Origin: an uncultured Actinomycetes bacterium
GTDB lineage: Bacteria; Actinomycetota; UBA4738; HRBIN12
Assembly: GCA_963810945.1 (NCBI GenBank)
Contig: CAWEPI010000008.1
Span: 74,366 to 138,365, forward strand
Reading direction: 5' to 3'
DNA: 64,000 nt
Shown here: positions 18,774-57,412 of the stretch, one piece after another
Numbering within the stretch: the first letter of the stretch is position 1
How the letters are laid out: the number at the start of each line of letters is the position of its first letter
Made by a program: the position numbers and the translations under genes
Notes under the pieces: generated by a model
Told to the model about the DNA's origin: nothing
Database searches by the model: none
What the model saw: the letters and a program-made list of their open reading frames with translations, nothing else

Positions 18774-20108
18774 TCAGACCCGCGCGGGCAGGTCGGCGCC
18801 GTGGCAACGCTTCCACTTCCGCCCGCTGCCGCACGTGCAGGGGTCGTTCCGCCCGCGACGCGCGTCCTCCCTGCCGTAGACCGCCATCACGTCGGCAGGC
18901 GCTTCGCCGGCGCGCAAGAGGTCGCACATCATCCGCATGGGCCGATCGATGTGGTGGAAGAACGCCTTGTAGCTGGGACACAGGTAGTGCTGTCCCTCCT
19001 CGCCGTAAGGCGAGATCGCGAACCGATCCTTGGGGCATCCCCCGTTGCAGGCGAAGCGCACGTCGCAGTCCAGGCAGAACCGGGTCAGCGTGTCGAACTT
19101 GTCCTGGCCGAACTTCTGCTGCTGGGGCGAGACGATCAGCTCCAGCATGTGCTTGTCCTCGATGTTGCCGAGCAGGTAGTCGGGCTCAACGAAGTGGTCG
19201 CACGAATACAGGTCGCCGGTGTGCTCGATCGCGAGCTGCAGCCCGCACGTCTCCGCGTGCACGCACATCCCGCCAGGCTCCCCGTAGAAGTTCGCGAGGG
19301 CCGTGTCGAACATCTGGACGTATACGGTGCCGATGTCGTGGCGCACCCACTCCTCGAACACGTCGATCATGAACCGTCCGTACTGCTCGGGTCCGACCGA
19401 GCGGTGGGTGACGAGGTCGCCCTCCTGCTTGTAGAGGGGCCGGCCCTTCACGCCCTCGCCCCATCCCGCCTCGGCCACGGCGAAGGTCTCGGGGGTCGCG
19501 CGCTCGATGATCGGGATGAACTGGACGAAGGTGGCGCCCAACTCGTCGCGGAAGAACGTGTAGACCTCGCGGCCGTGATCGCCGTTCACCGCGTGGATCG
19601 TCGTGAGCACGTTCCAGTCGACCTCGTGGCGCTTGAGCACGTCGAGGCCCGCCATCACCCGGTCGAAGGTGGGCTTGCCGCCCTTGTCCACGCGATACGC
19701 GTCGTGCATCTCGGAGGGGCCGTCGATCGAGATGCCGACCAGGAAGCCGTGCTCCTTCAGGAAGGCGCCCCACTCGTCGTCGAGGAGCGTCCCGTTCGTC
19801 TGCATCGTGTTGAGGATCCGCTGGCCGGGCTTCGCGAATCGTCGCTCGAGCTCGACCGAGCGGCGGAAGAAGTCCAGGCCCATCATCGTGGGCTCCCCGC
19901 CCTGCCAGGCCACGACGACCTCGTGGTGATCGGGGTGGGCCTCCAGCAGCTGGCGGATGTAGCGCTCGTGGATCTCTTCGGCCATCCGGAAGCGGCTGCC
20001 GGGGTAGAGCATCTCCTTCGACAGGAAGAAGCAGTACTCGCAGTCGAGGTTGCAGACCGCGCCTGTGGGCTTGGCCATCAGGTGGAACGCCAGCGGCGCC
20101 CCCGGCAT
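18774..20108 (-). CDS. anaerobic sulfatase-maturating enzyme (radical SAM/SPASM, AslB/AtsB-like)
   Basis: CNLDCEYCF radical-SAM cluster motif, SPASM cysteines, and a C-terminal SEC-C motif (CTCGSGRKWKRCHG). Confidence 0.85.
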   Translation of the reverse strand: MPGAPLAFHLMAKPTGAVCNLDCEYCFFLSKEMLYPGSRFRMAEEIHERYIRQLLEAHPDHHEVVVAWQGGEPTMMGLDFFRRSVELERRFAKPGQRILNTMQTNGTLLDDEWGAFLKEHGFLVGISIDGPSEMHDAYRVDKGGKPTFDRVMAGLDVLKRHEVDWNVLTTIHAVNGDHGREVYTFFRDELGATFVQFIPIIERATPETFAVAEAGWGEGVKGRPLYKQEGDLVTHRSVGPEQYGRFMIDVFEEWVRHDIGTVYVQMFDTALANFYGEPGGMCVHAETCGLQLAIEHTGDLYSCDHFVEPDYLLGNIEDKHMLELIVSPQQQKFGQDKFDTLTRFCLDCDVRFACNGGCPKDRFAISPYGEEGQHYLCPSYKAFFHHIDRPMRMMCDLLRAGEAPADVMAVYGREDARRGRNDPCTCGSGRKWKRCHGADLPARV

Positions 20109-20181
20109 CGTCAAGACGGGACCGGCGGACTCGGGATCCGCCGCCGGGGTGATGTCCGTGCGCTCGACCATCCTGGCCAGT

Positions 20182-20946
20182 CTACGGGCGGTCTCGGCTC
20201 CCGGAGTCACGGGTCCCGACCTCCTCGCTGAGCCTCATCGGATCGATGAGGACGATCCGGTCGCGAGAGGTCTCGATCAGGCCCTCGTCCCGCAGCTCGT
20301 GGAGGCTCCGGGTCACGACCTCCCGCACCGACCCGATGGCGTCGGCAAGCTCCTGTTGGCTGGCGCGCACGACGAGACGCCGCTCGTCACCGAGGGAGGC
20401 AAGATCAAGCAGTTGGAGCACGAGACGCTCACGGATCGGAAGGAAGGCCTGCTCGGAGAGATCTTCTAGCGCCTTGTACAGCTGTCGTGTCAACTCCTCC
20501 GCACACGCGCGGGCGACGCGTGGATCCGAAGCGAGCAACGAACGAAGCGTGTCGATCTGAAGGGCCACCACCGTCGCCGAGGTCATCGCTTGGATGCTCG
20601 TCGGTCCGGGCCCTCCGAGCACCAGGAGGAGGCCCGCCACATCGCCGTCCCGCAGGTAGCGCACCGTCACCTGCCGACCGTCGACGGACCTCAGGAACAC
20701 CCGCAGGAGGCCGCTCATGACCACGATGACGCGAGGACTCTCACCGTCGCGGTAGATCAGCGCGCCCGCAGGGACGGAGATCCGGATCGCCCCGGCCAGG
20801 AGCCGTTCGGCCACGTCCTCCGGGAGGTCAGAGAGGAAGCCACCGCGCGCGCCTCCCTGAACGAGCTCTTCGAGCACGGTCTCCGACCGGGCCTGGATCG
20901 TCCCGATCGAGCCCTGGTCTTCCCCCTCCAGAGCCAGTGTAGGCAC
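20182..20946 (-). CDS. Crp/Fnr-family transcriptional regulator
   Basis: N-terminal cNMP-binding beta-roll and a C-terminal HTH (ELADAIGSVREVVTRSLHELRDEGLI). Confidence 0.8.
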   Translation of the reverse strand: MPTLALEGEDQGSIGTIQARSETVLEELVQGGARGGFLSDLPEDVAERLLAGAIRISVPAGALIYRDGESPRVIVVMSGLLRVFLRSVDGRQVTVRYLRDGDVAGLLLVLGGPGPTSIQAMTSATVVALQIDTLRSLLASDPRVARACAEELTRQLYKALEDLSEQAFLPIRERLVLQLLDLASLGDERRLVVRASQQELADAIGSVREVVTRSLHELRDEGLIETSRDRIVLIDPMRLSEEVGTRDSGSRDRP

Positions 20947-20971
20947 GCTCCGTAGACCGGCGTTCGTCGTC

Positions 20972-20987
20972 GGTGACCCAGGTCACC
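20972..20987. promoter_or_regulatory. CRP/FNR-type site GGTGAcccaggTCACC (GTGA-N6-TCAC) in the divergent Crp-family / DUF4177 intergenic region
   Basis: Matches the TGTGA-N6-TCACA core. Lies 25-40 bp upstream of the Crp-family gene start. Confidence 0.45.
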
Positions 20988-21565: not shown

Positions 21566-23723
21566 CTAGTCAAGCAACGCGGAGTACGCGCGTTGCGCGT
21601 CGGTAAGGCGCACCGAGAGCGTGGTCGCGAGCCATCGATGGAGCGCGGCGGCGGTCTCGGGTTCCTCAGCCTCCAGACGCTCGATCGACGCACGGGTCAG
21701 CTCGAGGACCACGCTCGGCTCCTCGGCGATCACGTCCGCGGTCCGGGGAACCCCGGAGTACAGCGCCACCTCGCCCACCACGACCCCCGGTCTCACCGTG
21801 CTCAGGCGGAGCCGCTCCCCCTCGGGTGTCGTCAGCTCGACCCGCAATCGACCCGACTCCAGCACGAACAGGTCGTCTGGCGGATCGCCCTGGCGGATCA
21901 GCACGGTGCCCTCGGCGAGCGACCGGCGCTCGAGATAGGCCTCGAGGTGGGGTGGCAGGCCGGCGACGCCGTCGCCCGTGCCGCGCGCGACCGCCGGTCG
22001 GGCCTCCGCGAGCAGGACGTCCTCGCACCGCTGCAGGCCGCGATCCAGGTCCGGCTCGAACCGCACGATCCCCTCGGTCGCGACCACGCCTCCGCGTCGC
22101 AGCTGGTGCTCCACCCGCTCGGCCGCTCCCGCGAGCACGACCTCGAACCCGCTCGCCTCCGCGAGCTGGACCACCTTGTGGAACGCCAGCACGCCCGACG
22201 AGTCGACGCCGGTGACGCGTTGGACGTCGAGCAGGAGGAAGCGGATCGGCCCGGCCTCCACGCGCTTACGGATCCGCTCCAGGAGTCCGCTCGCGGTCCC
22301 GAAGAACACGAACCCGCTCAGCCGGAGGATCTGGACGCGGTCCACGAGATCGTGCAGCGCCGCGCGCTCGCCGGGCGGCCGGTCGACGTTGCTGCGGTAG
22401 GTCGTCCCGAAGGCCATCTCGTGCACGAGGTCGATCCGTCCGTAGTTCACCGCGAAGAGCACCACCGAGAGGATCAGTCCGACCACGAGACCGGCCAGGA
22501 GGCTTCCCGTCGCGATCGTCAGCACGATCGCGAGCACGATCAGGTACTCGCCCACGGGCAGCGACCGGCGCATGTCGAAGATCCACGAGACCAGGAACGA
22601 CAGGCCGACGAACACGAGCACGCCACCCACGATCATCCGCGGGACCAGCCCGACGACGCCGGCGCCGAAGATCACCGCCGCGAGCGGGACGAGCGCCGCC
22701 ACCAGGCCGGCCCCTCGCCCGTCGACGGACATCTGCTCCGCGAGCGCGGTCAGGCTGAGCGCGTGGTACCCGGGGATCGCCCCGAGGAGCCCCGTCACGA
22801 CGTTCACCAACCCCGCGTCGCGGAGCTCCCGGTTGGAATCGAGATCGGTGTGCAGCAGCAGCTCAACGCCGCCGACGTTGAACAGGCACGCCATCACGGC
22901 CACCAACACGGTGGTGGCGATGCCGGCGGCCTGGTCGAGGACCGCGGTCCAATCCGCACCGCCGAGCGCATGCAGGGTCCACGGTTGCCACAGCTGCGTC
23001 GAGGTGAACGGTCCCAGCAGCCACAGCCCGGTCCGAGCGTCCTGGATGGAGGACCCCGTGACGAGCATCCCGATCGCGAACAGCACGAGCCCGATCCCGA
23101 GGACGACCGGGATCACGAGTGAGCGCCGCACGACGCGGGTCGCGATCAGCAGGATCACGCCGAACGCGACGGCGGGGACCCAACGCACGAGCTCGAACGG
23201 GATCCACGAACTCCTTGATCGTGCCGATCTGCGGGGTCATGCCGGAGGCGACCCGGAGCCCGCCCTTGAAGAGCAGCCATCCCGTGCCCGCGAGGAAGCC
23301 ACCCACGACCGGATACGGGATGAACCGCGCCAGGTTGCCCAAGCGGAAGGTCCCGAGCAGCAGGAAGGTCGCGGCCGTCAGCAAGGTCACGACCATCGTC
23401 GCGGCCACGACCGTGAGGAACGCCTGGTAGACGCCCCCGACCGCGTCCAGCGCCGCGCTCGCGGCCACGATGCCAAGGACGGCCGCCGCCGCGTCCTGCA
23501 CGCTGCCTACGACGCCCCGCACGCCCCCCCTCCAGGCGAGGATCGCGAGCGTCAACGTCGCCGCGACGAGGTAGATGCCGATCCCGGCGGGCAGGTACTG
23601 CTCGATGTAGCCGCCGAACACGAGCGCGGCGAACGAGATCGCGAGCACCACCTCGACGATGCCGATCACCAAGCCGGCCGAGATGGTCGCCACCACCCTG
23701 CCGGCGCGCCGTTCCTCGGCCAC
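21566..23723 (-). CDS. SulP-family anion permease fused to STAS and cyclic-nucleotide-binding domains; frameshift near 23197-23203
   Basis: The SulP TM core is in the frame of ORF 22863..24038 and continues in ORF 21566..23188. The STAS domain is followed by a CNB domain (LIRQGDPPDDLFVLESGRLRV...GEVAL). GTG at 23723 is preceded by GGAGG. Confidence 0.75.
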
Positions 23724-27031: not shown

Positions 27032-27158
27032 CTACAGCGTAGACGTGAGACCGAGCACCCCACGTCGCCTCGCGGATCCTCCGGAAGGCAACGCCCGAAC
27101 GCCGTCGAGCATCTGGAGCGACTACGTCGACGACCCGGCCGCCAAGTCGTCCCAGGTC

Positions 27159-30100
27159 TCAGGGAGCGCCGCCAAGGCGGCATCCAGCTCGCGCGCGATC
27201 CGTTCTACCAGCGGCGGGCAAGCGTTCAGATCGCCGCCCCTTCGCCGCCTCTTCCAGCGTCCGGCTGCTGTCGGCGAGGGGTCGAGCACCGAACGTCGCG
27301 GCGTTGGACTTGAGGGTGTGGGCGGCGCGACGGAGCTCTGCGGTGTCGCCCGCGGCGAGCGCCGTGCGCGCCGCTGCGAGCAGCGCCGGCGCGTCCGCGG
27401 CGAACTGGTCGATCAGCTCGGCAACGAACGCCGCGTCGCCGCCGACGCCCTCGGCCAAGTGGGCAAGCGCCTCGCGGTCGATCGGTTCGACGTCGGGCCC
27501 CACCGACGACCCGGCCGCGGCCCCGCGCCTTCGGGGCGTGCGCTTGATCGCGGCAACGAGCTCGTCAACGCGGATCGGCTTCGTGAGGTAGTCGTTCATG
27601 CCCGCATCGAGGCATCGCTCGCGGTCACCGCTCATCGCCTCCGCGGTCATCGCGACGATCCAAGGGCGCTCCCCCTCCCGCCACCGCTCGATGATCCGCC
27701 TGGTCGCCTCGAGGCCGTCCATCTCCGGCATCTGGACGTCGGACAGGAGCAGATCGTAGGACTGCCGCTCGAGCGCCTCGATCGCCTCGATACCGTTGCC
27801 GGCGACGTCCGCCCGATAGCCGAGCTTCTCCAGCAGCCGGATCGCGAGCTTCTGATTCACGACGTTGTCCTCGGCCAGCAGGATCCGCAGCGGGTGCTTC
27901 GACGCCAGCGTCCCATCGAGCTCGCTCGTCGTCGCCTCCTCCGCGAGGCTCAGCGATGCCCCGAGCGCGGTCGCGAGCGCGCCGTGGAGCGGCGAGGCCT
28001 TGAGCGGCTTGGTGATGACCGCCCCGATCCCGGACGCCGGCCAGCGCGGGTCTTCCGCGACGTCGTGCTGGCTCATCGACGAGGCGAGCACGATCGGAAG
28101 ATCCGGGTCGCGCTCGTGGATCCGTATCGCCAGGTCGAGCCCGTCCATGCCGGGCATCAGCATGTCGAGCACCGCGACGTCGAACCGTTGCTCCGCCAGC
28201 GCGGCGAGCGCGGCCTCGTGCCCTTCGGTGACGACCGACTCGATCCCCCAGGCGCCGAGGAACGCCTGCAACAGGCGGCGGTTCGTCTCGTTGTCGTCGA
28301 CGACCAGCGCGCGGCGGTCGGCGAACGACCCGTCCCGTCGTAGGGCGGTCGGCGTCATGTCGGTCGTGCCTGCCTCGAGCGTGATGTGGAAGGTGCTCCC
28401 CTCGCCCGGGACCCCGGAGCTGATCGCCCACGCCGTGCCGCCCATCAGCTCGGCCAGACGTTTGCTGATGGCGAGACCGAGACCCGTCCCTCCGTATCTG
28501 CGGCTCGTCGACGCATCCACCTGCGTGAAGGACTTGAACAATCGGTCGATCCGATCCAGGGGGATGCCGATCCCCGTGTCGCGCACGCTCAGGTGATAGC
28601 CGATCGTGTCGGATCGCTCGACCGGCTGAGCGGCGGCCGTGATCACGATCTCGCCGGCGTCGGTGAACTTCACCGCGTTGTTCAGTAGGTTCAGGAGGAT
28701 CTGTCGGATGCGGCTCGCGTCGCCGACCGCCGTCTCCGGCGTGCCGGGCTCGATCTCGTAGACGACCTCGAGCCCCTTGCCCATCGCCACCGGTCCGATC
28801 AGGTCCGTCACCGACTCGATGCACGCCCGCAGGTCGAACGGCGCCCGCTCGAGGTCCATGCGTCCCGCCTCGATCTTCGAGAAGTCGAGGATGTCGTTGA
28901 TGATCGAGAGGAGCGCCTCGCCGGAGTTCGCGATCGTCGCCGCGTAGTCGCGCTGCTCGGCGTCCAGCGACGTTTCCAGGAGCAGACCGCTCATGCCGAT
29001 GATCGCGTTCATCGGCGTGCGGATCTCGTGGCTCGTCGCGGCGAGGAAGGCGCTCTTCGCAGCGTTCGCCTCCTCGGCCACCTCGCGTGCCTCCCGCGCC
29101 TCGCGGAACAGGCGCGCGTTCTGGATCGCGATGCCGACGTTCGCAGCGATCGTGGCGAGCAACCGCGTCTCGCTCTCGCCGTACAGACCTTCCTTCCCCG
29201 CACTCTGCACGCTGATGACGCCGATCGCGGTGGGCCCGACCATGATCGGCACGCCGAGGAAGGAGCGCACGGGCGTCCCCACCATCGAACCGCCACGCGC
29301 TTGGAACGCCTCTGCCCGGTTGAGCAGCAGCGGCTCACGCGACCTCAGGATCTCGGACGTCAACCCCTCGCCGAACTGGAGGGGCGCCTGCGGCTCCTTC
29401 CTGCCGTCTTCGTTGTGGTACGCGAATTCGATCGTCCCGGCCGCCTCGTCGAGCAGCGCGACGTACACGATGTCCGCGCCGAACACGTCGCGGAGGCCGT
29501 CGCCGAGGCGCTCGATCAACGCCCCAAGGTCGAGCTGATCGGCGAGCGCCTGGCCGACGTTGTTCACGATCGACATCTCGGCGGCGTTCTGTCGTGTCTC
29601 CTCGAACAACCGGGCGTTCTCCAGGGCGACGCTCAGGCTGCCGGCGAGGGTCGCCAAGAGCCGCACGTCGACCTCGGTGAAGGCGTTCTCACGATCGAGG
29701 TTCTGCAGAGAGATGACCCCGGTCGCGCGGCCACCGACCATCAAGGGCACGAACACCGCCGACCGGGGGGTCTCACCGGCGATCGACTCCGGCTGATCGG
29801 GAGCGAGCTGGAGACCATCGGCCCACGCTTGGATCAGGAGTGGCTCCCCGGTCTCGAGGGTGTGGCGGCGGAACCCGACCACGTCGACCGGCTCATCCGG
29901 GAAGCGGACCCCGCGTTCGATCGTGTACGGGAAGTTGATCCGCGTCTCCTCCTCGTTCAGGATCCCGATATCGACCACCTGCGCGTCGAAGATGTCGCGG
30001 ATCCGGTCGCCCACCAGGTCGTACATCGCCTGCATCTCGAGGTTCTCTGCGAGTCCGCGCTGCACGTCGTTGATCAGCGCGAGCTCGGCATTGCGCTGGC

Positions 30101-32237
30101 GGGTCTCCTCGAACAGCCGGGCGTTCTCGAGCGCCACGCTCAAGCCCCGTGCGATCGTCGTCAGCAGCCGGACGTCGCCTTCGCTGAAGGCGTGCTCACG
30201 ATCGAGGTTGTGGAGGGAGACCACGCCGGTCCCTCGGTTGCCGACGACCAGCGGGACGAAGACCGAAGACAGTGACGGCTCTCCGGCGATCGCGAACGGA
30301 TTCCCCGCCTCGATGCACCGGCGTTCCATGTCGTCGTTGACGACGACGGGTTCGTGCGTCTCGAGCGCGATCTTGCGGAACCCCATCACCTCTATCGGAT
30401 GGTCGACCAGACGCTGGCCGCGCTCGAGCGAATATGGGAACCAGATCTGGTCCGTGGTCTCGTCGAGCATGCCGATGTCGACCGTTTGCGCGTCGAAGAT
30501 CTCCTGGATCCGTTCTCCGACGAGGGTGTACATCGCCTGCGGGTCGAGATTCTCGACGAGACCGCGCTGGACCTCGTTGATCAGCGCCAGCTCGGCGTTC
30601 CGCTGGCGTGTCTCCTCGAACAGCCGGGCGTTCTCGAGCGCGGCGCTGAGGCTGCCGGCGAGCGTGGTGAGGAGCCGAACGTCCGCGTCACTGAACGCGT
30701 GCTCGCGATCCAGGTTCTGCAGCGAAACGACGCCGGTCGCCTTCAGACCGACCACCAGCGGCACGTACACCACCGACATCGCTGGCTCCCCTTGGAGCAC
30801 CGGGGCGCCACCCAGCTCAACGACCTGTTCGGAGGCCCGGTCGTTGAAGACGATGGGCTCGCGCGTCTCAAGTACCTTCCCACGCGGGCCGCCCACCTCC
30901 ATCGGCTCGTCGTGGAAGCGAACGCCCCGCTCGATCGTGTAGGGGAAGCGGATCAGCCCGGCGTCCTCGTCGAGGATGGCGATGTCGACCACCTGTGCGT
31001 CGAAGATGTCGCGGATCCGGTCCCCGACCAGGTCGTACATCGCTTGCATCTCGAGGTTCTGGGCGAGACCTCGCTGCACGTCGTTGATGAGCGCGAGTTC
31101 GGCGTTGCGCTGGCGCGCCTCTTCGAAGAGCCGGGCGTTCTCTAGCGCAACGCTGAGGCTGCCGGCGAGCGTCGTGAGCAAGCGGACGTCTGCCTCGGTG
31201 AACGCGTGCTCGCGATCGAGGTTCTGCAACGAGATCACGCCGAACGCCTCGCCGCCTGTGATGAGCGGGACGAACAGGACTGACTTCGACTGCTCCCCCG
31301 CCAAGAGATCGGCCGCCTGACCGAACTCGGGCAATCGCTCCAGAACACGCTCGTTGAGCAGCAAGGGCGCGCGCGCGTCGAGTACGTGCCTCCGAAATCC
31401 GACGATGGGGATCCGTTCCAGGGGGAAGCGGACCCCGCGTTCGATCGTATAGGTGATGTCGAGCGCCTCCGCGGCGCGGTCGACGATCCCGATGTCGACC
31501 ACCTGCGCGTCGAAGATCGACTGCAGGCGATCCCCCACCAGGTCGTACATCCCCTGCATCTCGAGGTTCGCGGCGAGACCGTGCTGCACGTCGTTGATCA
31601 GCGCCAGCTCCGCGTTGCGTTGCCGGGTCTCCTCGATCGCGCGGGCGCGACTCAGGGCCGCGCCGACGTGGCTCGCGACGAAGGTCAGGAGGTCCTTGTC
31701 CTCCTCCGTGTGATGCACGTCGTCGCGATAGCTCTGCACGACCATCGCGCCGACGATCCGCCCGTCGGCGCGGAGCGGAACGCCGAGCCAGTCGACCGAA
31801 GGCACGCCGAGGAGCTGGACCTTGCCCTCCCGGATCAGGTCCTCGATGTCCGCGAGCGACAGCAGCATGGAGGTGCCCGTCCGCAGGAGGTACGCGGTCA
31901 GACCGGTGGCGTCACCCTCCCCCATCGGCTCCCAGACGCTCGGATCCGGGAAGGCCTCGTCCGCGTCGACGTCGACATAGAACGGCCAGTTCATCGCCTG
32001 CCGCTCTTCGTCGTACAGGGCGACGTAGAAGTTGTCCGCGTTCATGAGCTCGCCGACGATGCCGTGGATCGCGGCGTAGAACTGCTGCATGTCCTGGGCG
32101 GCGCTCGCCGTCTCAGCGATGCGGTAGAGGGCGGCCTGGACGTGAGCGGAGTGGCGTCGATCCGCGTCCAGTCCCTCGAGTTCCTCGACACGACGCCGGA
32201 GCGCGTCCAGATCCGACGACCCGGCCCGGTCGGTCAC
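27159..32237 (-). CDS. cytoplasmic hybrid sensor histidine kinase: 6 tandem GAF domains, HisKA, HATPase_c, REC, REC, HPt
   Basis: The ORF continues upstream as a junk-like frame, so the start is placed at the GTG overlapping the stop of the upstream cyclase gene (GGTGA). H-box SHEIRTP, two D-containing REC domains, and a C-terminal HPt ([12 protein letters not shown]). No TM helices. Confidence 0.85.
29700..31660. repeat. intragenic tandem repeat: four to five diverged copies (about 480 bp each, about 80% nt identity), each encoding one GAF domain ([14 protein letters not shown]...LENARLFEE)
   Basis: Recurrent strings such as ctcgaacagccgggcgttctcgagcgc and gtgctcgcgatcgaggttctgca recur at about 29.6, 30.1, 30.6, 31.1 and 31.6 kb. 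Confidence 0.7.
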
Positions 32238-33313
32238 CCGGAAGCTTCCCGCTGTGGGTCGGCGGTCCACACCTTGATGCGAGCCTGCTTCCCACGGATC
32301 TCGAACTCGTCCACGAACGTCAGCTCGTCGGCGCCGCTCGTGAGGTTCGTCCGCGTCTGGTCGGCGAGGAGGATCGTCCTCCCCGTCTGCTTGGTCAGCT
32401 GCTCGATGCGCGATGCGGTGTTGACGGTGTCGCCGATCACCGAGTAGTCGATGCGTCGCTCGGAGCCCAGCGTGCCGGACATCACGCGGCCGGAGTCCAG
32501 CCCGATCCCCATCCGGAAGCCCTCCCCGATGCCTTCGGCCCGGAGCCAGCCGTTGAACTCCGACAGCCGTCGCGCGGCCATGTCGCGCGCGGCGGCGACC
32601 GCCCGGTCCGCGTGATCCACGCTCTCGACCGGCGCGCCGAACACGGCCATCAGGCCATCGCCCAGGTAGTGGACCAGCGTGCCCCCGTGATCCAGCACGG
32701 CGTCGCCCATCGTGCCCAGGTAACGGCCCAGCACCGTCATCACCTGTTCGACCGGCCGCGATTCGGCGAAGGTCGTGAATCCGCGGAGATCGATGAACAT
32801 CACGGTGACCCACAGTCGCACCGCCCCGATCGAGGGCAACCCGTCGCTGCGCGAAAGCATCTCGGCGGCGATCGGCTCCGGCAGGAAGCGGGTGAACACG
32901 TCGCGCACACGTTCCTGCTCGATGTCAGCGAGCTGCTTGCGGTTCAGACCGGATCGGATGCGCGCTCGCAGGATCACGGGGTCGAACGGCTTGGGCAGGA
33001 AGTCCTCGGCTCCCGCCTCGATGCACCGAACGATGCTGTCGGTGTCCTCGACGCCGGAGATCATGACCACCGGGGTGTGCCGGAGCTCCGGGTCCTCCTT
33101 CAGCCGCTCGAGCACCTCGATGCCGTCGAGCCCCGGCATCTCGACGTCCAACAGGACGAGATCCGGCCGGTCGGCGGAGAACGCCGCGAGCGCAGAGAAC
33201 CCGTCCTCGAACTGCGTGACGTGATGCCCGTCGTCCTCGAGGTGCTTGGCGAGGAGCCGGCGATTCAGCGGATCGTCGTCCACGATGGCGATGTGACCTC
33301 GACGACCCTCCAT
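32234..33313 (-). CDS. response regulator with class III adenylate/guanylate cyclase output domain
   Basis: REC domain ([12 protein letters not shown]...[11 protein letters not shown]) followed by a cyclase homology domain ([36 protein letters not shown]). Confidence 0.85.
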
Positions 33314-33655
33314 GCGACCCCCTGTGCCGGACGCTGGAGTCTCTCACGCGGTTGTCGGTTCGAACAATCGATCGGTCTCGGGACCGGATCCTTCCTAGCT
33401 CGGCACGAGCCGGATCGTCGTGGATCGCGCCTCCGGACTCGTGATGTGGTCGACCGCCGTGGAGGATCGGCCGTACTTGCGCCTACGGATCGCACGTAGA
33501 CGTCGTCGCCGAGGCGGACTACCCAGACGACCCGCGGGCGCTGCAGCATCGCAGTACCCTCCGATCCCGTTCCTGATCCTCCCCACCTTGCTCCAGCGGC
33601 GGTCGTTGGTCGGATCGGACTCGCTCAGCCTCACTCTCCACGGTAGTGTGCGATC

Positions 33656-34159
33656 GTGGAGCATCCGGAGATCGCCGCAACCTTGATGCGTGCCGAGGTC
33701 TTCGGAGGACTCGACCCGCGCGTCGTGAGCCACGTCGCTGGGATCGCCTACTGGCGTTCGATCCCTCCTGGCCAACACGTCTTCTTCGAAGGCGATATCG
33801 CGACCGAGTTCTACGTCGTGTCTTCCGGAAGCGTGCGCGTCTACATCCCCTCACACGGCGACGAGCTCAACGCCGCCATCGTTCGAGAGGGCCAGATGTT
33901 CGGCGAGGGCGGGATGCTCGACGGGGGGCCGCGGGTGGCGTCGGCCCTCGCCCTGGAGCCCACGACGCTACTGGTCGTGCCGAGGGCACCGTGGTTCGCT
34001 CTGATCGAAAGCGAACCCGCCTTGGCACTCCGAGTGTTTTCAGCGTTCGGGGCCGCCCTCCGGAGATACGTGGGTCACGTGCTGGAATCCCTGTTCTTGG
34101 ACGTGGAGGTCCCCGAAGCTCCGCCGCTCCAGAGCGAGGAGTGGCCCGGTTCGGAGTGA
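33656..34159 (+). CDS. stand-alone cyclic-nucleotide-binding domain protein
   Basis: CNB fold (FFEGDIATEFYVVSSGSVRV...GEGGML). GTG at 33656. Confidence 0.7.
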   Translation: MEHPEIAATLMRAEVFGGLDPRVVSHVAGIAYWRSIPPGQHVFFEGDIATEFYVVSSGSVRVYIPSHGDELNAAIVREGQMFGEGGMLDGGPRVASALALEPTTLLVVPRAPWFALIESEPALALRVFSAFGAALRRYVGHVLESLFLDVEVPEAPPLQSEEWPGSE

Positions 34160-34192: not shown

Positions 34193-36940
34193 TCATGAGG
34201 GACGCTCGACCGGTGTCGCCGCCCGCGCGCCTCCCACCCTGCGACGGGCGATCAGCTTGCCGAGCTCCCACAGGACGAACAGCACCAGGGCAGGAAGGGC
34301 GCCGCCGATCAGCCATTGCCGGCCGGTGAGGGCCTGGGTGCTCAGCAGCGATGTCAGCAAGCCACCCCGGGCGAGCAGGATCGCGAGGACGACCTCGATC
34401 AGGATGGTGACGTTCACGACGTTGTTGTCGAACGTCTCCATGCGGAGGATCGACCCCGTCTCGTCGCGGGACTCGAACGCCGCGATCACGAGCATCAGGG
34501 AGAAGGCCACCAGTCCCATCGTGCTCCCGATCGCGACGTTGCCGTAGTGGTCCCGCCCGAAGACGATCACGAGGTCGATCGCGGCGGACATGAAGACGCC
34601 GACCAGCCCCACGGTCGTGATGACGGAGCGCGACATGATCGAGGCCGAGCGGGGGCGCGGCTTGCGATCCATGAGGCCCGGGGTCTCCTTGTCCAAGCCC
34701 AGCGCGATGCCGACGGGTGCCGTGATCAGGAAGTTGATCCACAGGATCTGGACGGCCGTGAAGGGTTGCCCTCCGGCGATGTTCAACAGCGTGGCCACCA
34801 GGAACGTCACGATGTAGGTGACGAGCGCCACCAGCATGAAGCGGATGTACTTGAGCATGTTGTCGTAGAGCTTGCGTCCCTCGGAGACCGCACGCACGAT
34901 CGTGGCGAAGTTGTCGTCGGTGAGGATCATCTTGCCGGCGTTCTTGGCGACCTCGGTGCCGGTGCCCATCGCGATGCCGATGTCGGCTGCCTTGATGGCC
35001 GGAGCGTCGTTGACCCCATCGCCGGTCATGGCCACGACGTCCCCCTGCTTGCGCAGGGTGTCCACCATCAGCACCTTGTGCTCGGGTGCCACCCTGCCCA
35101 CGACACCGATGCCATCGATGCGCACCAGCCGCTCTTCCTCCGACAAGGCGGCGAACTCCGCACCAAGGATCGCTTCGCCGGGGATGCCGAGCTGCTTGGC
35201 GATCGCAGCGCCGGTCACGACGTCGTCGCCCGTCACCATCCGCACGCGGACGTTGGCGGCCTGGGCGTTGCGGACCGCGTCCTTGGACTCGGCCCTGGGT
35301 GGGTCGATCATCCCCACCATCGCCGTCATCTGCAGCTCCTTCACCATCGAGAGCAGGTCGCCGTTGGGATCGAAGTCCGAGGGGTCGATATCCCGCGTGG
35401 CCGCGACCATGATCCGCAAGCCCTGCTCGCCGAGGCGTGCCATCTCTCGGTCGGCCCTCTCGTTCTGCTCGTCGCCCCATGGAACGCTCGTGCCGTTCGC
35501 CAGTGCGGACGCTGCTCGCCCGATCACCGCCGGGCCGGCTCCCTTGACGAACATCCGAACGACGGCCGTGCCGGACGCATCCTTCGCATCGGCGAAGACG
35601 GCCATGAGCTTGTAGGTGGGGTCGAACGGCAGCGTAGCGAGCCGGGGATGGGTGGCCTGCGTCCCCTCGACATCGAGCTTGGCCTTGTGCCCGAGGACGA
35701 GGAGCGCACCTTCGGTGGGATCGCCCACGACCTTGCCGTCGACGAGTTTGGCGTCGTTCGCGATCAGGAACGGCACGATCGCCTCCTCGATCGTGCTCGT
35801 GTTGCCGGCGGCGTGCTTGACCTCGCCGTCGAGGCCGTAGCCCATCCCGGTGATCGTGTAGCGATCCGTGGGGTCGATCACCTCGACGACCGTCACCTGG
35901 TTCATCGTCAGGGTCCCGGTCTTGTCCGAGTTGATCGCCGAGGTCGAGCCGAGGGTCTCGACGGAGGCGAGGTTCTTCACGACGGCGCCATGGTCCGCGA
36001 GGGTCGTGGATCCCTTCGACAAGATCACCTGCAGGACCGTGGGCATGGCCATCGGCACGGCGGCGAGGGCCAGCGCGATGGCGGTCGTGAAGATCGTCTC
36101 GGTCGATTGGTCGCGGGAGATGCCGAGGGCGAACATGATCACGATCGTCAGGCCGGCGGCACCGGCGATCCAGAGCGTCAACGTGTCGAGCTGCGCGGTC
36201 AGCGGGGTCTTGAGGGTGGGCGTCGACTTCAACATCCCGGAGATGCGGCCGACCTCGGTGTCGGCGCCGGTCCCGGTGACGATCATCACACCGCTCCCGT
36301 GCGTGACCGGGGAGTTCATGAACGCCATGTTCGTCTGATCCCCCACGCCGGGCTTCTCGTCGGTGATCGCCTCGGTGCCCTTGGACGCGGGGACGCTCTC
36401 ACCGGTCAGCCCGGACTCGTCGATCTGCAGCGACGCCGCCTCGATGATCCGCCCGTCCGCGCACACGTCATCGCCCGCCTCGAGCAGCACGACGTCGCCG
36501 ACGACAACCTGGTCCGCGACGATCTCGACCTCCGTCCCGTCACGCCGGACCCGCGCGGAGGCCTTGAGCATCGACTGCAGCGCGTTCATGGCGCTCTCCG
36601 CCTTGCCCTGCTGGCGCATCCCCCCGAGCGCGTTGACCGCCGTGATCGCCAAGACCGCGATGCCCGTGGAGATCTCACCGATCAGGATCGAGCCGACGGC
36701 CGCCACGACGAGGATGATCTGCATGTAGCTCCGGTACTGGGCCAGGAACTGCTTCCAGCCGGGGACCGTCGCTTCGGCCGGAAGGGCGTTGGGGCCGTTC
36801 TTCTGCAGCAGCTCCGCAGCCTTCGCTGCACTCAGCCCCTGCGCGGGGTCGACGCCGGATCGCTGCGCCACGTCCTCGGGTGTGAGCGCGTACCAGGCCG
36901 TCGCGGAGGCATCGTCCTGGCTCTGGACGATCTCGGTCAT
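34193..36940 (-). CDS. P-type cation-transporting ATPase (P2-type, Ca2+/Mg2+-ATPase-like)
   Basis: DKTGTLT, TGES, MTGDGVNDAPAIK and 10 TM helices. Confidence 0.9.
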   Translation of the reverse strand: MTEIVQSQDDASATAWYALTPEDVAQRSGVDPAQGLSAAKAAELLQKNGPNALPAEATVPGWKQFLAQYRSYMQIILVVAAVGSILIGEISTGIAVLAITAVNALGGMRQQGKAESAMNALQSMLKASARVRRDGTEVEIVADQVVVGDVVLLEAGDDVCADGRIIEAASLQIDESGLTGESVPASKGTEAITDEKPGVGDQTNMAFMNSPVTHGSGVMIVTGTGADTEVGRISGMLKSTPTLKTPLTAQLDTLTLWIAGAAGLTIVIMFALGISRDQSTETIFTTAIALALAAVPMAMPTVLQVILSKGSTTLADHGAVVKNLASVETLGSTSAINSDKTGTLTMNQVTVVEVIDPTDRYTITGMGYGLDGEVKHAAGNTSTIEEAIVPFLIANDAKLVDGKVVGDPTEGALLVLGHKAKLDVEGTQATHPRLATLPFDPTYKLMAVFADAKDASGTAVVRMFVKGAGPAVIGRAASALANGTSVPWGDEQNERADREMARLGEQGLRIMVAATRDIDPSDFDPNGDLLSMVKELQMTAMVGMIDPPRAESKDAVRNAQAANVRVRMVTGDDVVTGAAIAKQLGIPGEAILGAEFAALSEEERLVRIDGIGVVGRVAPEHKVLMVDTLRKQGDVVAMTGDGVNDAPAIKAADIGIAMGTGTEVAKNAGKMILTDDNFATIVRAVSEGRKLYDNMLKYIRFMLVALVTYIVTFLVATLLNIAGGQPFTAVQILWINFLITAPVGIALGLDKETPGLMDRKPRPRSASIMSRSVITTVGLVGVFMSAAIDLVIVFGRDHYGNVAIGSTMGLVAFSLMLVIAAFESRDETGSILRMETFDNNVVNVTILIEVVLAILLARGGLLTSLLSTQALTGRQWLIGGALPALVLFVLWELGKLIARRRVGGARAATPVERPS

Positions 36941-55578: not shown

Positions 55579-56307
55579 ATGGTTACCGCGAGGGGGGCTG
55601 CTGTGGCTTCGACCGCGCATGGTGCCAACCGCGAAACGGCTGCCGCCGGCCGCGTGTTGATGATCGATGACGAGCCGCGGATCTTGAACTTCGTTCGGCG
55701 CGGGCTCGAGGCTGAGGGCCTGGAAGTCGACGAGGCCTCCTCGGGCCAGGAGGGGCTCGATCTGGCGCTCGAAGGGCGATACGACCTCGTGATCCTGGAC
55801 CTGGTGATGCCGGGTCTCGACGGGAACAAGGTGCTCAGTCGGCTCCTCGAGCGGCGGCCCGAACAACAGGTACTCGTGCTTTCGGCACTGAACGACACCG
55901 CCACGAAGGTGCGCAGCCTCGAACGTGGGGCGGAGGACTACATCGCCAAACCGTTCTCGTTGGAGGAGCTACTCGCCCGGGTCGAGGTCCGACTGCGCAA
56001 CGCGCAGCGCACGAACGAGACCCACCTGCGTTCACGGGGCCTCTCGTTGGATGTGATCCACCGGCGCGCCGATACCGGTACCGGCCCGGTGCCGCTCGCA
56101 GATCGAGAGTTCCTCCTGTTGCGCGAGTTGATGCGGGATGCAGGTCGCACGGTCTCGAAGGAGCGCCTGTTGTCGTCGGTGTGGGGGTATCACTTCGATC
56201 CGGAGTCCAACGTCGTCGACGTCTACGTCCGCCGACTTCGGGCCAAGCTCGGCGCCGCGACGATCGTGACGGAGCGGGGAGTGGGGTACCGTGTCGAAGC
56301 GCCGTGA
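55579..56307 (+). CDS. OmpR-family response regulator
   Basis: REC domain (VLMIDDEPR...LDLVMPGLDG) with a winged-helix output. SD GGGAGGGG. Confidence 0.8.
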   Translation: MVTARGAAVASTAHGANRETAAAGRVLMIDDEPRILNFVRRGLEAEGLEVDEASSGQEGLDLALEGRYDLVILDLVMPGLDGNKVLSRLLERRPEQQVLVLSALNDTATKVRSLERGAEDYIAKPFSLEELLARVEVRLRNAQRTNETHLRSRGLSLDVIHRRADTGTGPVPLADREFLLLRELMRDAGRTVSKERLLSSVWGYHFDPESNVVDVYVRRLRAKLGAATIVTERGVGYRVEAP

Positions 56308-57412
56308 GCACGTCGAGTGGCCCGCTCGCGACCGGTGGATCGACGTCGCCTGGGTGCTGTTCTCGCTCGCCAACCTCGCTGCCATGCTGCTCATCCCCGA
56401 TTGGGAGACGGTGCCGTTCCACTTCATCTGGGTGAGCCTGACGATCCTGTACGGGTTCCGCGTGTGGCGCACGCGGCCGACCGTCGTGATCCTCGCGCTG
56501 GTGATGGCCACGACCGGCGCATCCATCTACTTCGACGTGAGACGTGGGGGTCAGCCGCTCGACGAGATCACCGAAGTGCCGCTCATGGCCGCCATGTTCG
56601 CGGCCATGGTGTGGCATGCGCGGCGTCGACTGACGGCCACCGAGGAGACGGAACGCGTTTCCTTGGACAACCTTCGTCTCCTCGAGCGCGAGCGCCGCTT
56701 CGTCCAAGACGCCTCCCATGAGCTCCGCACCCCGATCACGGTGGCCCTCGGCCACGCAGAGCTGATCCAACGACAGACAATCGACCCCACCATCGGGCAG
56801 GATGCCGCGGTGATCAACGACGAGCTGATGCGGTTGCGCAGGCTCGCCGACCGTCTCTTGCTCCTAGCGAGCTCGGAGGATCTCGAGCGTTCCCCAGACG
56901 GTTCCGATCGGCGTGGAGCAGCTCGTGGTCGAGGCCGTCGAATCGGTGGGCGGCGACACCGCGGCGGTGGGTCCTCTCCACCACCGAGGAGGTGTTGGTG
57001 CTCGCCGACGCCAGACAGGCTCGCCGTCGCGATCGACGCCGTGATCGAGAACGCGGTGCAACATACCGATGAGGCGGACACGATCGGATTGGGCGTCGAG
57101 CGGCGCGGTACCGAAGCGGTGATCTGGATCCGTGATACGGGAACGGGGATCGCGGCCGTGGACCTGGATCGGATCTTCGATCGGTTCGCTCGGTCCTATC
57201 CGGGTCGAAGCAGGCACACCGGTGGGTTCGGTCTCGGACTGCCGATCGTGCAGGCCATCGTCGAAGGGCACGGAGGCTCGGTGCGCGTCGAAAGCGTCGA
57301 GGGAGCCTGGACGCGGTTCGAGATCGCACTGCCGGTGGCTCAACAGATCATCGGCCCGGAGCTCGGTGACGTCGTGATGGTGGACGGGGATACTCGTGAT
57401 CCCGTCGGTTGA
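56291..57412 (+). CDS. sensor histidine kinase with three frameshifts in the 56890-57010 region
   Basis: Two TM helices, H-box SHELRTP, and a G-box DTGTGI. The stretch between them reads as an R/G-rich junk-like segment in-frame, but as a normal HK sequence across two other frames. Confidence 0.7.
   Translation: MSKRREHVEWPARDRWIDVAWVLFSLANLAAMLLIPDWETVPFHFIWVSLTILYGFRVWRTRPTVVILALVMATTGASIYFDVRRGGQPLDEITEVPLMAAMFAAMVWHARRRLTATEETERVSLDNLRLLERERRFVQDASHELRTPITVALGHAELIQRQTIDPTIGQDAAVINDELMRLRRLADRLLLLASSEDLERSPDGSDRRGAARGRGRRIGGRRHRGGGSSPPPRRCWCSPTPDRLAVAIDAVIENAVQHTDEADTIGLGVERRGTEAVIWIRDTGTGIAAVDLDRIFDRFARSYPGRSRHTGGFGLGLPIVQAIVEGHGGSVRVESVEGAWTRFEIALPVAQQIIGPELGDVVMVDGDTRDPVG

Follow-up and report, generated by a model that had tools for sequence, protein, structure and literature searches.

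In a 64,000-nucleotide stretch of contig CAWEPI010000008.1 from an uncultured Actinomycetes bacterium (the window), two overlapping genes encode a class III nucleotide cyclase fused to a receiver (the REC-cyclase) and a hybrid histidine kinase with six GAF domains, two receivers and a C-terminal HPt domain. Comparison of sequences makes it fairly probable, in our judgement, that the two form a translationally coupled phosphorelay operon of uncultured soil Actinomycetota through which the multi-GAF kinase controls the cyclase. The domain architecture of both proteins is clear, their phosphorylation and catalytic residues are intact, and both the pairing of the genes and their overlap are conserved among relatives. 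Receiver-controlled class III cyclases join two-component and cyclic-nucleotide signalling, and few have been studied.

Because the G+C content of the region is ~68%, mechanical lists of its open reading frames are crowded; three genes were singled out by third-position G+C, those of the kinase, the cyclase and a divergently transcribed, stand-alone cyclic-nucleotide-binding (CNB) protein (Table 1). On the kinase, Pfam profiles recognise GAF or GAF_2 in six stretches (E 1e-81), HisKA (3e-21), HATPase_c (3e-28), Response_reg in two stretches (5e-48) and Hpt (4e-13). On the cyclase they recognise Response_reg (1.5e-31, 109 bits) and Guanylate_cyc (PF00211; 1.5e-22, 80.6 bits against a cut-off of 21.9), which makes the enzyme a member of the class III family. 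Pfam and a direct reading of the sequence thus bear out, in coordinates and domain content, the domain architecture and the overlapping stop and start codons described in an initial annotation of this DNA. Judged by the domain E-values and by synteny kept across ~20 independent loci, the features of the pair are far beyond chance.

The residues needed for a relay are present throughout the kinase. Its H-box contains His1070 (SHEIRTP at 1069), and the N, G1 and G2 boxes of the ATP-binding domain are all there; the receivers, RECa and RECb, retain the acceptors Asp1358 and Asp1500, respectively, and His1640 of the HPt domain lies in HTLKS, fitting the HxxK[GS] context. No transmembrane segment was predicted in the kinase, whose most hydrophobic 19-mer is a GAF beta-strand. 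A reading of the protein as a membrane sensor was ruled out, there being no hydrophobic segment outside the GAF strands.

In the REC-cyclase, the receiver (aa 8-120) is joined to the class III domain (aa 169-346) by a helical linker that includes a cyclase-transducer-like segment (aa ~112-155). Homologues number more than 5600; the best 120 of them, all from uncultured Actinomycetota or metagenomes, are 71-95% identical and 349-391 aa long, save one 596-aa entry that also matches GAF. Across the 137 homologues of the close clade (cyclases at least 63% identical; 120 database proteins and 17 locus-derived sequences), the residues of a phospho-accepting receiver, D12, D13, D56, S86 and K108, are invariant, as are the metal-binding D175 and D219 and the transition-state N298 and R302 of the catalytic domain. 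By this conservation the cyclase is very probably catalytically active.

The closest solved relative of the cyclase receiver is PleD REC1 (40-50% alike, E about 1e-25), a receiver that dimerises on phosphorylation, and the closest solved catalytic domains are those of Cya2 (2w01) and the IlaC phytochrome fusion (6fht), with E values of 6e-30 and 8e-34. Linker and cyclase align with the Cya2 domain of 6fht, the transducer helix included. An AlphaFold2 (AF2) model built from 40 homologues at 71-95% identity has a good receiver and a continuous helix over residues 112-143; in its catalytic domain the pLDDT is <50, and the model was rejected for fold search and for active-site arguments.

To compare gene order, we searched 85 fetched loci (designated below by L numbers) with hidden Markov models built from the window's own domains. 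Every close-clade locus reads REC-cyclase, GAF1, n GAF repeats, GAF6, kinase core, RECa, RECb and HPt, with four loci in which the contig ends inside the GAF array. The multi-GAF kinase directly follows the cyclase in all 14 close-clade genome loci, and again in L001, L003, L085 and L088, while the genes flanking the pair are not conserved. The overlap between the two genes is GTGA or ATGA in 17 of 17 distinct scorable close-clade loci (L016 has an adjacent TGATG, and L014 was left unscored owing to a frameshift), and the kinase N-terminus read from the overlapping start is conserved. Since this RTGA arrangement recurs in all scorable loci, translational coupling, one part of the co-translation claimed initially, is plausible; that the two products are made stoichiometrically does not follow from a 4-bp overlap.

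More distant relatives speak to the target of the HPt domain. In a sister clade, whose cyclases are 54-58% identical to that of the window, a stand-alone HPt gene (129 aa) lies directly upstream of the REC-cyclase in 7 of 7 loci. The Pfam order in one of these, L021 (9594-14874), is Hpt (129 aa), REC-cyclase, SBP_bac_3 and a dCache-HAMP-GAF-HisKA-HATPase-REC protein; the dCache-HAMP-GAF hybrid kinase near the sister-clade cyclase is without HPt and keeps only the RECb-type receiver. By comparison, then, the sister clade has the same relay split into separate genes, the HPt travelling with the cyclase. In Gaiellaceae (L089 6001-15485, a metagenome-assembled genome, MAG), a 2807-aa PAS+GAF hybrid kinase with HPt precedes, with a 4-bp overlap, a REC-cyclase 41% identical to the window's, so that the gene order is reversed and the pairing retained. 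For 49 of 59 still more distant REC-cyclases (Proteobacteria, Verrucomicrobiota, Acidimicrobiia), a kinase core is encoded on the same strand no more than 8 kb away. The split HPt of the sister clade, the Gaiellaceae reversal and this wide kinase pairing, together with the uniform pairing in the close clade, lend comparative support to the initial proposal that the kinase HPt is the phosphodonor of the cyclase receiver.

From these features we infer the following phosphotransfer route, sign of regulation and kind of ligand. The array of dimeric GAF domains would let the soluble hybrid kinase sense one or more cues inside the cell, and the kinase would autophosphorylate on His1070. The phosphoryl group would pass to a receiver of the kinase itself, most likely to Asp1500 of RECb, and from there to His1640 of the C-terminal HPt, which would in turn phosphorylate Asp56 of the REC-cyclase. 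Phosphorylation would lead to dimerisation of the receiver, whereupon the alpha5/linker helix and the transducer-like segment would align two class III domains, and the aligned catalytic domains would switch cyclic-nucleotide synthesis, probably on.

The sensory part of the kinase is a tandem array with a 169-aa period. Units 2-5 are mutually 56-69% identical in protein and 66-73% in DNA, whereas the identity of units 1 and 6 to the remaining units is 28-39%; within each unit the central strands and loops vary, the helices on either side being nearly identical. Six GAF domains, as initially described, are indeed what Pfam finds in the window kinase, but the count is not a fixed one. The initial suggestion that these six read several ligands is a conjecture. 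Orthologous kinases carry ~4 to 11 GAFs (5-10 in the loci analysed) in steps of one 169-aa unit, which yields a ladder of lengths at 1333, 1679-1704, 1847-1883, 2011-2047, 2198-2224 and 2559 aa. Because the best match of each unit is usually in another genome (window unit 4, for instance, is 81-83% identical to L015_6, L004_3, L008_3 and L001_5), the unit types are, by sequence, old paralogues; duplicates within a protein are few, such as units 2 and 4 of L004 at 82%. Bilin-binding (cyanobacteriochrome-like) GAFs were ruled out, as no Cys is conserved across the units.

A fuller scheme would close a feedback loop: the enzyme would be a cAMP-specific adenylate cyclase, its product would be read by the CNB protein, a Crp-family regulator and a SulP-CNB transporter, and the kinase GAFs would themselves bind cAMP. 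We regard this as possible but somewhat doubtful. Bacterial class III cyclases are overwhelmingly adenylate cyclases, as the background cited in PMC4215837 has it. The CNB, Crp and SulP-CNB genes lie within 14 kb, and SulP-CNB genes are found near the L004 cyclase too. The kinase GAFs also offer some support. An AF2 model of unit 5 (pLDDT 82.5) shows the standard GAF fold, and its closest solved GAF by sequence and by fold is the cAMP-bound GAF of Lcd1 (5w10), a protein whose function is described in PMC8846402. The margin is narrow, however, at 18% identity and a sequence E of 0.0016: the next matches, GAFs of PtsP, PDE2A, HD-GYP, a sigma-54 regulator, PDE10A and DosS, have 14-24% identity and similar TM-scores, with the non-nucleotide GAFs among them (PtsP, the sigma-54 regulator and DosS) scoring almost equally. 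Set beside the cyclic nucleoside monophosphate (cNMP)-binding GAFs of Lcd1, PDE2/5/10 and CyaB2, the units thus share the fold, but with an identity of only 14-24% and with other GAF classes nearly level. Furthermore, the NKFDE-type motif of cNMP-binding GAFs, N[KR]...F...DE, is incomplete in the window units, which have no Lys/Arg and no final Glu; this failure is weak evidence, because the motif is structural and not ligand-contacting. Feedback of a cNMP through the kinase GAFs is best called possible but unsupported.

The residues that specify the purine also speak against the cAMP scheme. In a gap-free alignment to E488/G562 of Cya2 and to the engineered Lys of 6fht, the Lys/Glu position is occupied by His215 and the Asp/Thr/Cys/Gly position by Ser291. 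At these sites adenylate cyclases carry Lys/Asp or Lys/Thr, and guanylate cyclases Glu/Cys or Glu/Gly (PMC4215837). Inspection of the pair, a check that the initial annotation had proposed, thus revealed neither an adenylate signature (Lys with Asp or Thr) nor a guanylate signature (Glu with Cys, Gly or Ser), His standing in the place of Glu. Lys is absent from this position in all 137 close-clade homologues, and Glu is found in only 2 of the 120 database homologues. In the close clade the pair is most often Asp/Ala (93 of 137), and otherwise Ser/Thr, Ala/Ala, Asp/Thr, Ser/Ala, His/Ser and others; the sister clade has Gly/Thr or Ala/Thr, the Gaiellaceae partner Gln/Thr, and the distant REC-cyclases Lys/Asp (28), Glu/Gly (14), Gln/Thr and Gln/Ala. 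In addition, Cya2, the closest solved cyclase, is a guanylate cyclase, and adjacency to the CNB gene is lost by 90% cyclase identity. The label of a cAMP module given at the outset is not borne out, and 'adenylate' or cAMP is a default guess only.

The opposite view, in which the clade has abandoned Lys-based adenine recognition and the enzyme is a guanylate, dual-specificity or other non-cAMP cyclase, also strikes us as rather unlikely. Its best solved homologue, Cya2, has the Glu/Gly pair (PMC4215837), the Asp/Ala of the clade majority is, like Glu/Gly, an acidic residue with a small one, the exact Glu/Gly pair occurs in related gammaproteobacterial REC-cyclases, and full conservation of the catalytic residues suggests an enzyme active on something. 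Yet the purine position is only loosely constrained. It is the most variable residue of an otherwise invariant motif and tolerates D, S, A, H, E and N; with an entropy rank of 78 of 359 and 10 inferred changes on the tree, where the median column has 6, the variability is nonetheless only moderate, and the notion of a hypervariable site was rejected. Such loose constraint suggests that this site is not the selector in the close clade and probably no specificity determinant, as is reportedly the case in some mycobacterial cyclases (Rv1900c). The neighbouring CNB protein, moreover, is without the Thr typical of cGMP-selective CNB sites. Finally, the window protein has Ser in place of the Tyr that boosts GTP use by Cya2 (PMC4215837).

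Taking these residues together, we would give cAMP about an even chance of being the product, cGMP or a dual product a distinctly smaller one, and some other product or an inactive enzyme a slight one each. Because all catalytic residues are kept and neither a Lys nor a Glu selector is, the clade may make cGMP, both purine cNMPs or a pyrimidine cNMP, the product perhaps depending on the strain; the variable GAF array of the partner might then sense that product, giving a self-tuning relay. We count this reading as a whole as a long shot.

The phosphorelay from kinase to cyclase, which we favour whatever its product, would pass through the HPt domain at the end of the kinase. As the sequence reads, the Hpt profile match covers positions 1-64 of 84; removal of one G extends it to positions 1-83 of 84 (68 bits), and the kinase then ends at 27122-27124 with a typical last HPt helix supplied by the other frame. 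The 1-nt insertion, at 27236, is specific to the window by comparison with L085 (95% cyclase identity) and with L088, a strain whose DNA matches that of the window at 98.9% identity over 16 kb. Where the kinase tail of the window is AAGGGGCGGCGA, that of L085 is AAGGGCGGCGA and the in-frame tail of L088 is AAGGGGGGCGA. Since so near a strain as L088 is in frame, the insertion is likely a sequencing error. The kinase genes of both relatives have breaks of their own, at residue 1455 in L088 (near L088 10291; called as 1455+245 aa) and at L085 13542-13574 in the other (called as 821+874 aa), consistent with long-read indel errors in these MAG assemblies. That assemblies so nearly identical are each broken at a different single base speaks for errors of assembly, and against pseudogenes, as the source of the window's own breaks.

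Several points weigh against the proposed relay. All relatives come from metagenome-assembled genomes, and support for the route comes by comparison. Adjacency is no proof that two proteins are phosphotransfer partners, several regulators can be served by one HPt-bearing hybrid kinase, and RECa, the second receiver, has no role assigned to it in our scheme. That phosphorylation probably turns the cyclase on is something that we only infer, and the poor AF2 model of the cyclase domain supports no structural argument about the active site. Moreover, should the frameshift in the last HPt helix be genuine, this strain would have an impaired relay. It is nevertheless improbable that the two genes are co-expressed with the cyclase receiver not being the HPt target (phosphorylated instead by the HisKA domain or another kinase, or serving as a phosphate sink while the HPt feeds an unlinked regulator): two receivers and an HPt do exceed the needs of a single linear relay, and branched relays are common (PMC9239204), but the stand-alone HPt gene of the sister clade adjoins the REC-cyclase and not the kinase, the pairing survives reversal of the gene order, and no other regulator is conserved in the neighbourhoods compared, no genome-wide search for regulators having been made.

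The proposed module resembles known systems in its parts. In Spirulina CyaC, phosphorylation of the receiver beside the cyclase domain activates the enzyme, according to PMC3009899, which cites Kasahara and Ohmori 1999. CyaC (REC-GAF-GAF-HisKA-HATPase-REC-class IIIb cyclase, Spirulina/Anabaena) likewise has a receiver directly N-terminal to a class III cyclase under the control of a GAF histidine kinase. CyaC, however, is one polypeptide with direct His-to-Asp transfer, whereas here there are two coupled genes with a 4-bp overlap and a predicted REC-HPt step; CyaC has two GAFs, the window kinase six and its orthologues 4-11. The Lys/Thr adenylate signature of CyaC likewise differs from the His/Ser of the window enzyme. 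The cyclase has the helical transducer segment of Synechocystis Cya2 (2w01) and of its engineered phytochrome fusion IlaC (6fht), and the metal-binding and transition-state residues are the same in all of them, but Cya2 has a Glu/Gly pair and a GTP-favouring Tyr where the window has His/Ser and Ser, and the regulatory domain is different. The receiver is similar to PleD REC1, and the proposed logic is that of PleD-type REC-GGDEF proteins, in which receivers that dimerise on phosphorylation assemble a dimeric nucleotide cyclase (PMC8041772 for a REC-GGDEF); unlike in PleD, the output is a class III cyclase and not GGDEF, and there is only one receiver. The kinase has the HisKA-HATPase-REC-HPt order of ArcB, BarA and TorS with all phosphorylatable residues present, but in contrast to these it is soluble, has a GAF array as its only sensor and two receivers, and is partnered with an enzyme and not with a transcription factor.

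By analogy, the module would combine the known logic of receiver-controlled cyclases (CyaC, PleD) with an ArcB-type His-Asp-His-Asp relay. It is distinct in its two coupled split genes, its HPt step, its long, variable and soluble GAF array, and its non-canonical substrate pair. In the literature we found no description of this operon, and no characterised receiver-controlled class III cyclase with an HPt-mediated multistep relay. The family is abundant in soil Actinomycetota, with more than 5000 homologues of the kinase and likewise of the cyclase. It offers natural fused and split relays, a series of sensors with 4-11 GAFs, and an intact cyclase with non-canonical selector residues, and knowing the product would allow better annotation of thousands of genes that at present are called 'adenylate cyclase' by default. 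Current concepts remain unchanged; the value is incremental, the module being a conceptually ordinary one in bacterial signalling.

Relatives of the pair occur in further arrangements. Split relay operons with a periplasmic SBP_bac_3 protein and a membrane kinase are present in L018, L019, L021 and L023-L025, and the ligand of this sister-clade version is probably extracellular. A large sister family is made up of PAS+GAF hybrid kinases that are 2450-2950 aa long and share 45% identity with the window kinase. The gammaproteobacterial REC-cyclases (L029, L030, L032, L034-L037, L039 and L043; for example L035 8724-13015) have the Cya2-like Glu/Gly pair, with a divergent Crp-family (CNB+HTH) gene upstream and a single-domain REC and a HAMP kinase downstream; from their sequences these loci are candidate cGMP modules. 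In L060 (9452-11041, a Xanthobacteraceae MAG), a Lys/Asp REC-cyclase bears an N-terminal HisKA-like domain with no ATPase, and lies downstream of a HAMP hybrid kinase with two receivers and a single-domain REC; the HisKA-like domain may be a built-in histidine phosphotransferase.

Table 1. Positions of the cyclase-kinase pair, its domains and neighbouring features in the window
Feature	Position	Strand	Basis
REC-cyclase gene, 359 aa	32234-33313	-	Pfam Response_reg aa 8-120 and Guanylate_cyc aa 169-346
Hybrid histidine kinase gene	27159-32237 as read, 1692 aa; 27122-32237 after correction, 1704 aa	-	Pfam
GTGA overlap, cyclase stop TGA / kinase start GTG	32234-32237	-	Read directly in the sequence
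Six tandem GAF units, 169-aa period	31623-32132, 31113-31622, 30606-31112, 30099-30605, 29592-30098, 29094-29591 (total 29094-32132)	-	hmmsearch
HisKA and HATPase_c kinase core	28338-29093	-	Pfam HisKA aa 1060-1125, HATPase_c aa 1172-1289
Two kinase receivers, RECa and RECb	27918-28322 and 27522-27893 (span 27522-28322)	-	Pfam Response_reg, two stretches
HPt domain, His1640	27125-27452	-	Pfam Hpt
Run of four G with one base more than relatives; frame shift in last HPt helix	27233-27236	-	Alignment with L085 and L001; indel list against L088
Divergent intergenic region	33314-33655		~237 bp (33381-33618) missing from L085, present in L088
Stand-alone cNMP-binding protein gene, 167 aa, single domain	33656-34159	+	Pfam cNMP_binding
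P-type ATPase gene, adjoining the CNB gene	34193-36940	-	Pfam; without cyclic-nucleotide domain
SulP-STAS-CNB transporter gene, broken by 1-nt insertion near 23199	21566-23723	-	Pfam; indel against L088
Crp-family regulator gene	20182-20982	-	Pfam

The divergent CNB gene, which starts 342 bp from the cyclase start (33656 against 33313), encodes a member of PF00027 (cNMP_binding, 76.8 bits, E 1.2e-21) with the Glu and Arg of the phosphate-binding cassette present in FGEGGMLDGGPRVA. It had been taken for part of the module, a view that comparison does not uphold: the window, L088 and L085 are the only loci in which it adjoins the cyclase, and it is gone at 90%, 83% and lower cyclase identity. 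Because it is absent already at 90%, the CNB protein is, on this comparison, a local neighbour and not a defining part of the module.

Scans of the DNA between the two genes and around them were negative. A scan for sigma-70 promoters and terminators was uninformative: it returned no promoters, in the cyclase/CNB intergenic region or elsewhere, and as many terminators as chance would give. Matches to the Crp box (TGTGA-N6-TCACA, at most 2 mismatches) were fewer in the window than expected by chance, with none in the cyclase/CNB intergenic region. Rfam gave no match at the locus (E-value mode) or in the whole window (gathering mode), and a tRNA scan was also empty. The ~237-bp segment of the intergenic region that L085 lacks holds several GGATCG motifs; no second copy of it exists in the window or in the loci searched for it, and it was accordingly rejected as a mobile or repeated element.

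Three further genes of the window had been called cNMP-related. The description holds for the Crp-family regulator and for the SulP-CNB transporter but is unfounded for the ATPase, because that protein has no cyclic-nucleotide domain. The SulP-STAS-CNB gene lies in two frames when searched by tblastn with its L004 orthologue, the window having CCC where L088 has CC (23190-23215); like that in the kinase tail, this break probably arose in assembly. The Crp-family gene has at its 5' end (20972-20987) the palindrome GGTGACCCAGGTCACC, which could be an autoregulatory site; the window contains no more matches to the Crp consensus than chance would give. Directly adjoining the same gene is one for a radical SAM/SPASM protein with a C-terminal SEC-C motif (18774-20234, minus strand). 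A second, unrelated two-component pair, with receiver-like and kinase-core-like matches, is located at 55645-57331 on the plus strand.

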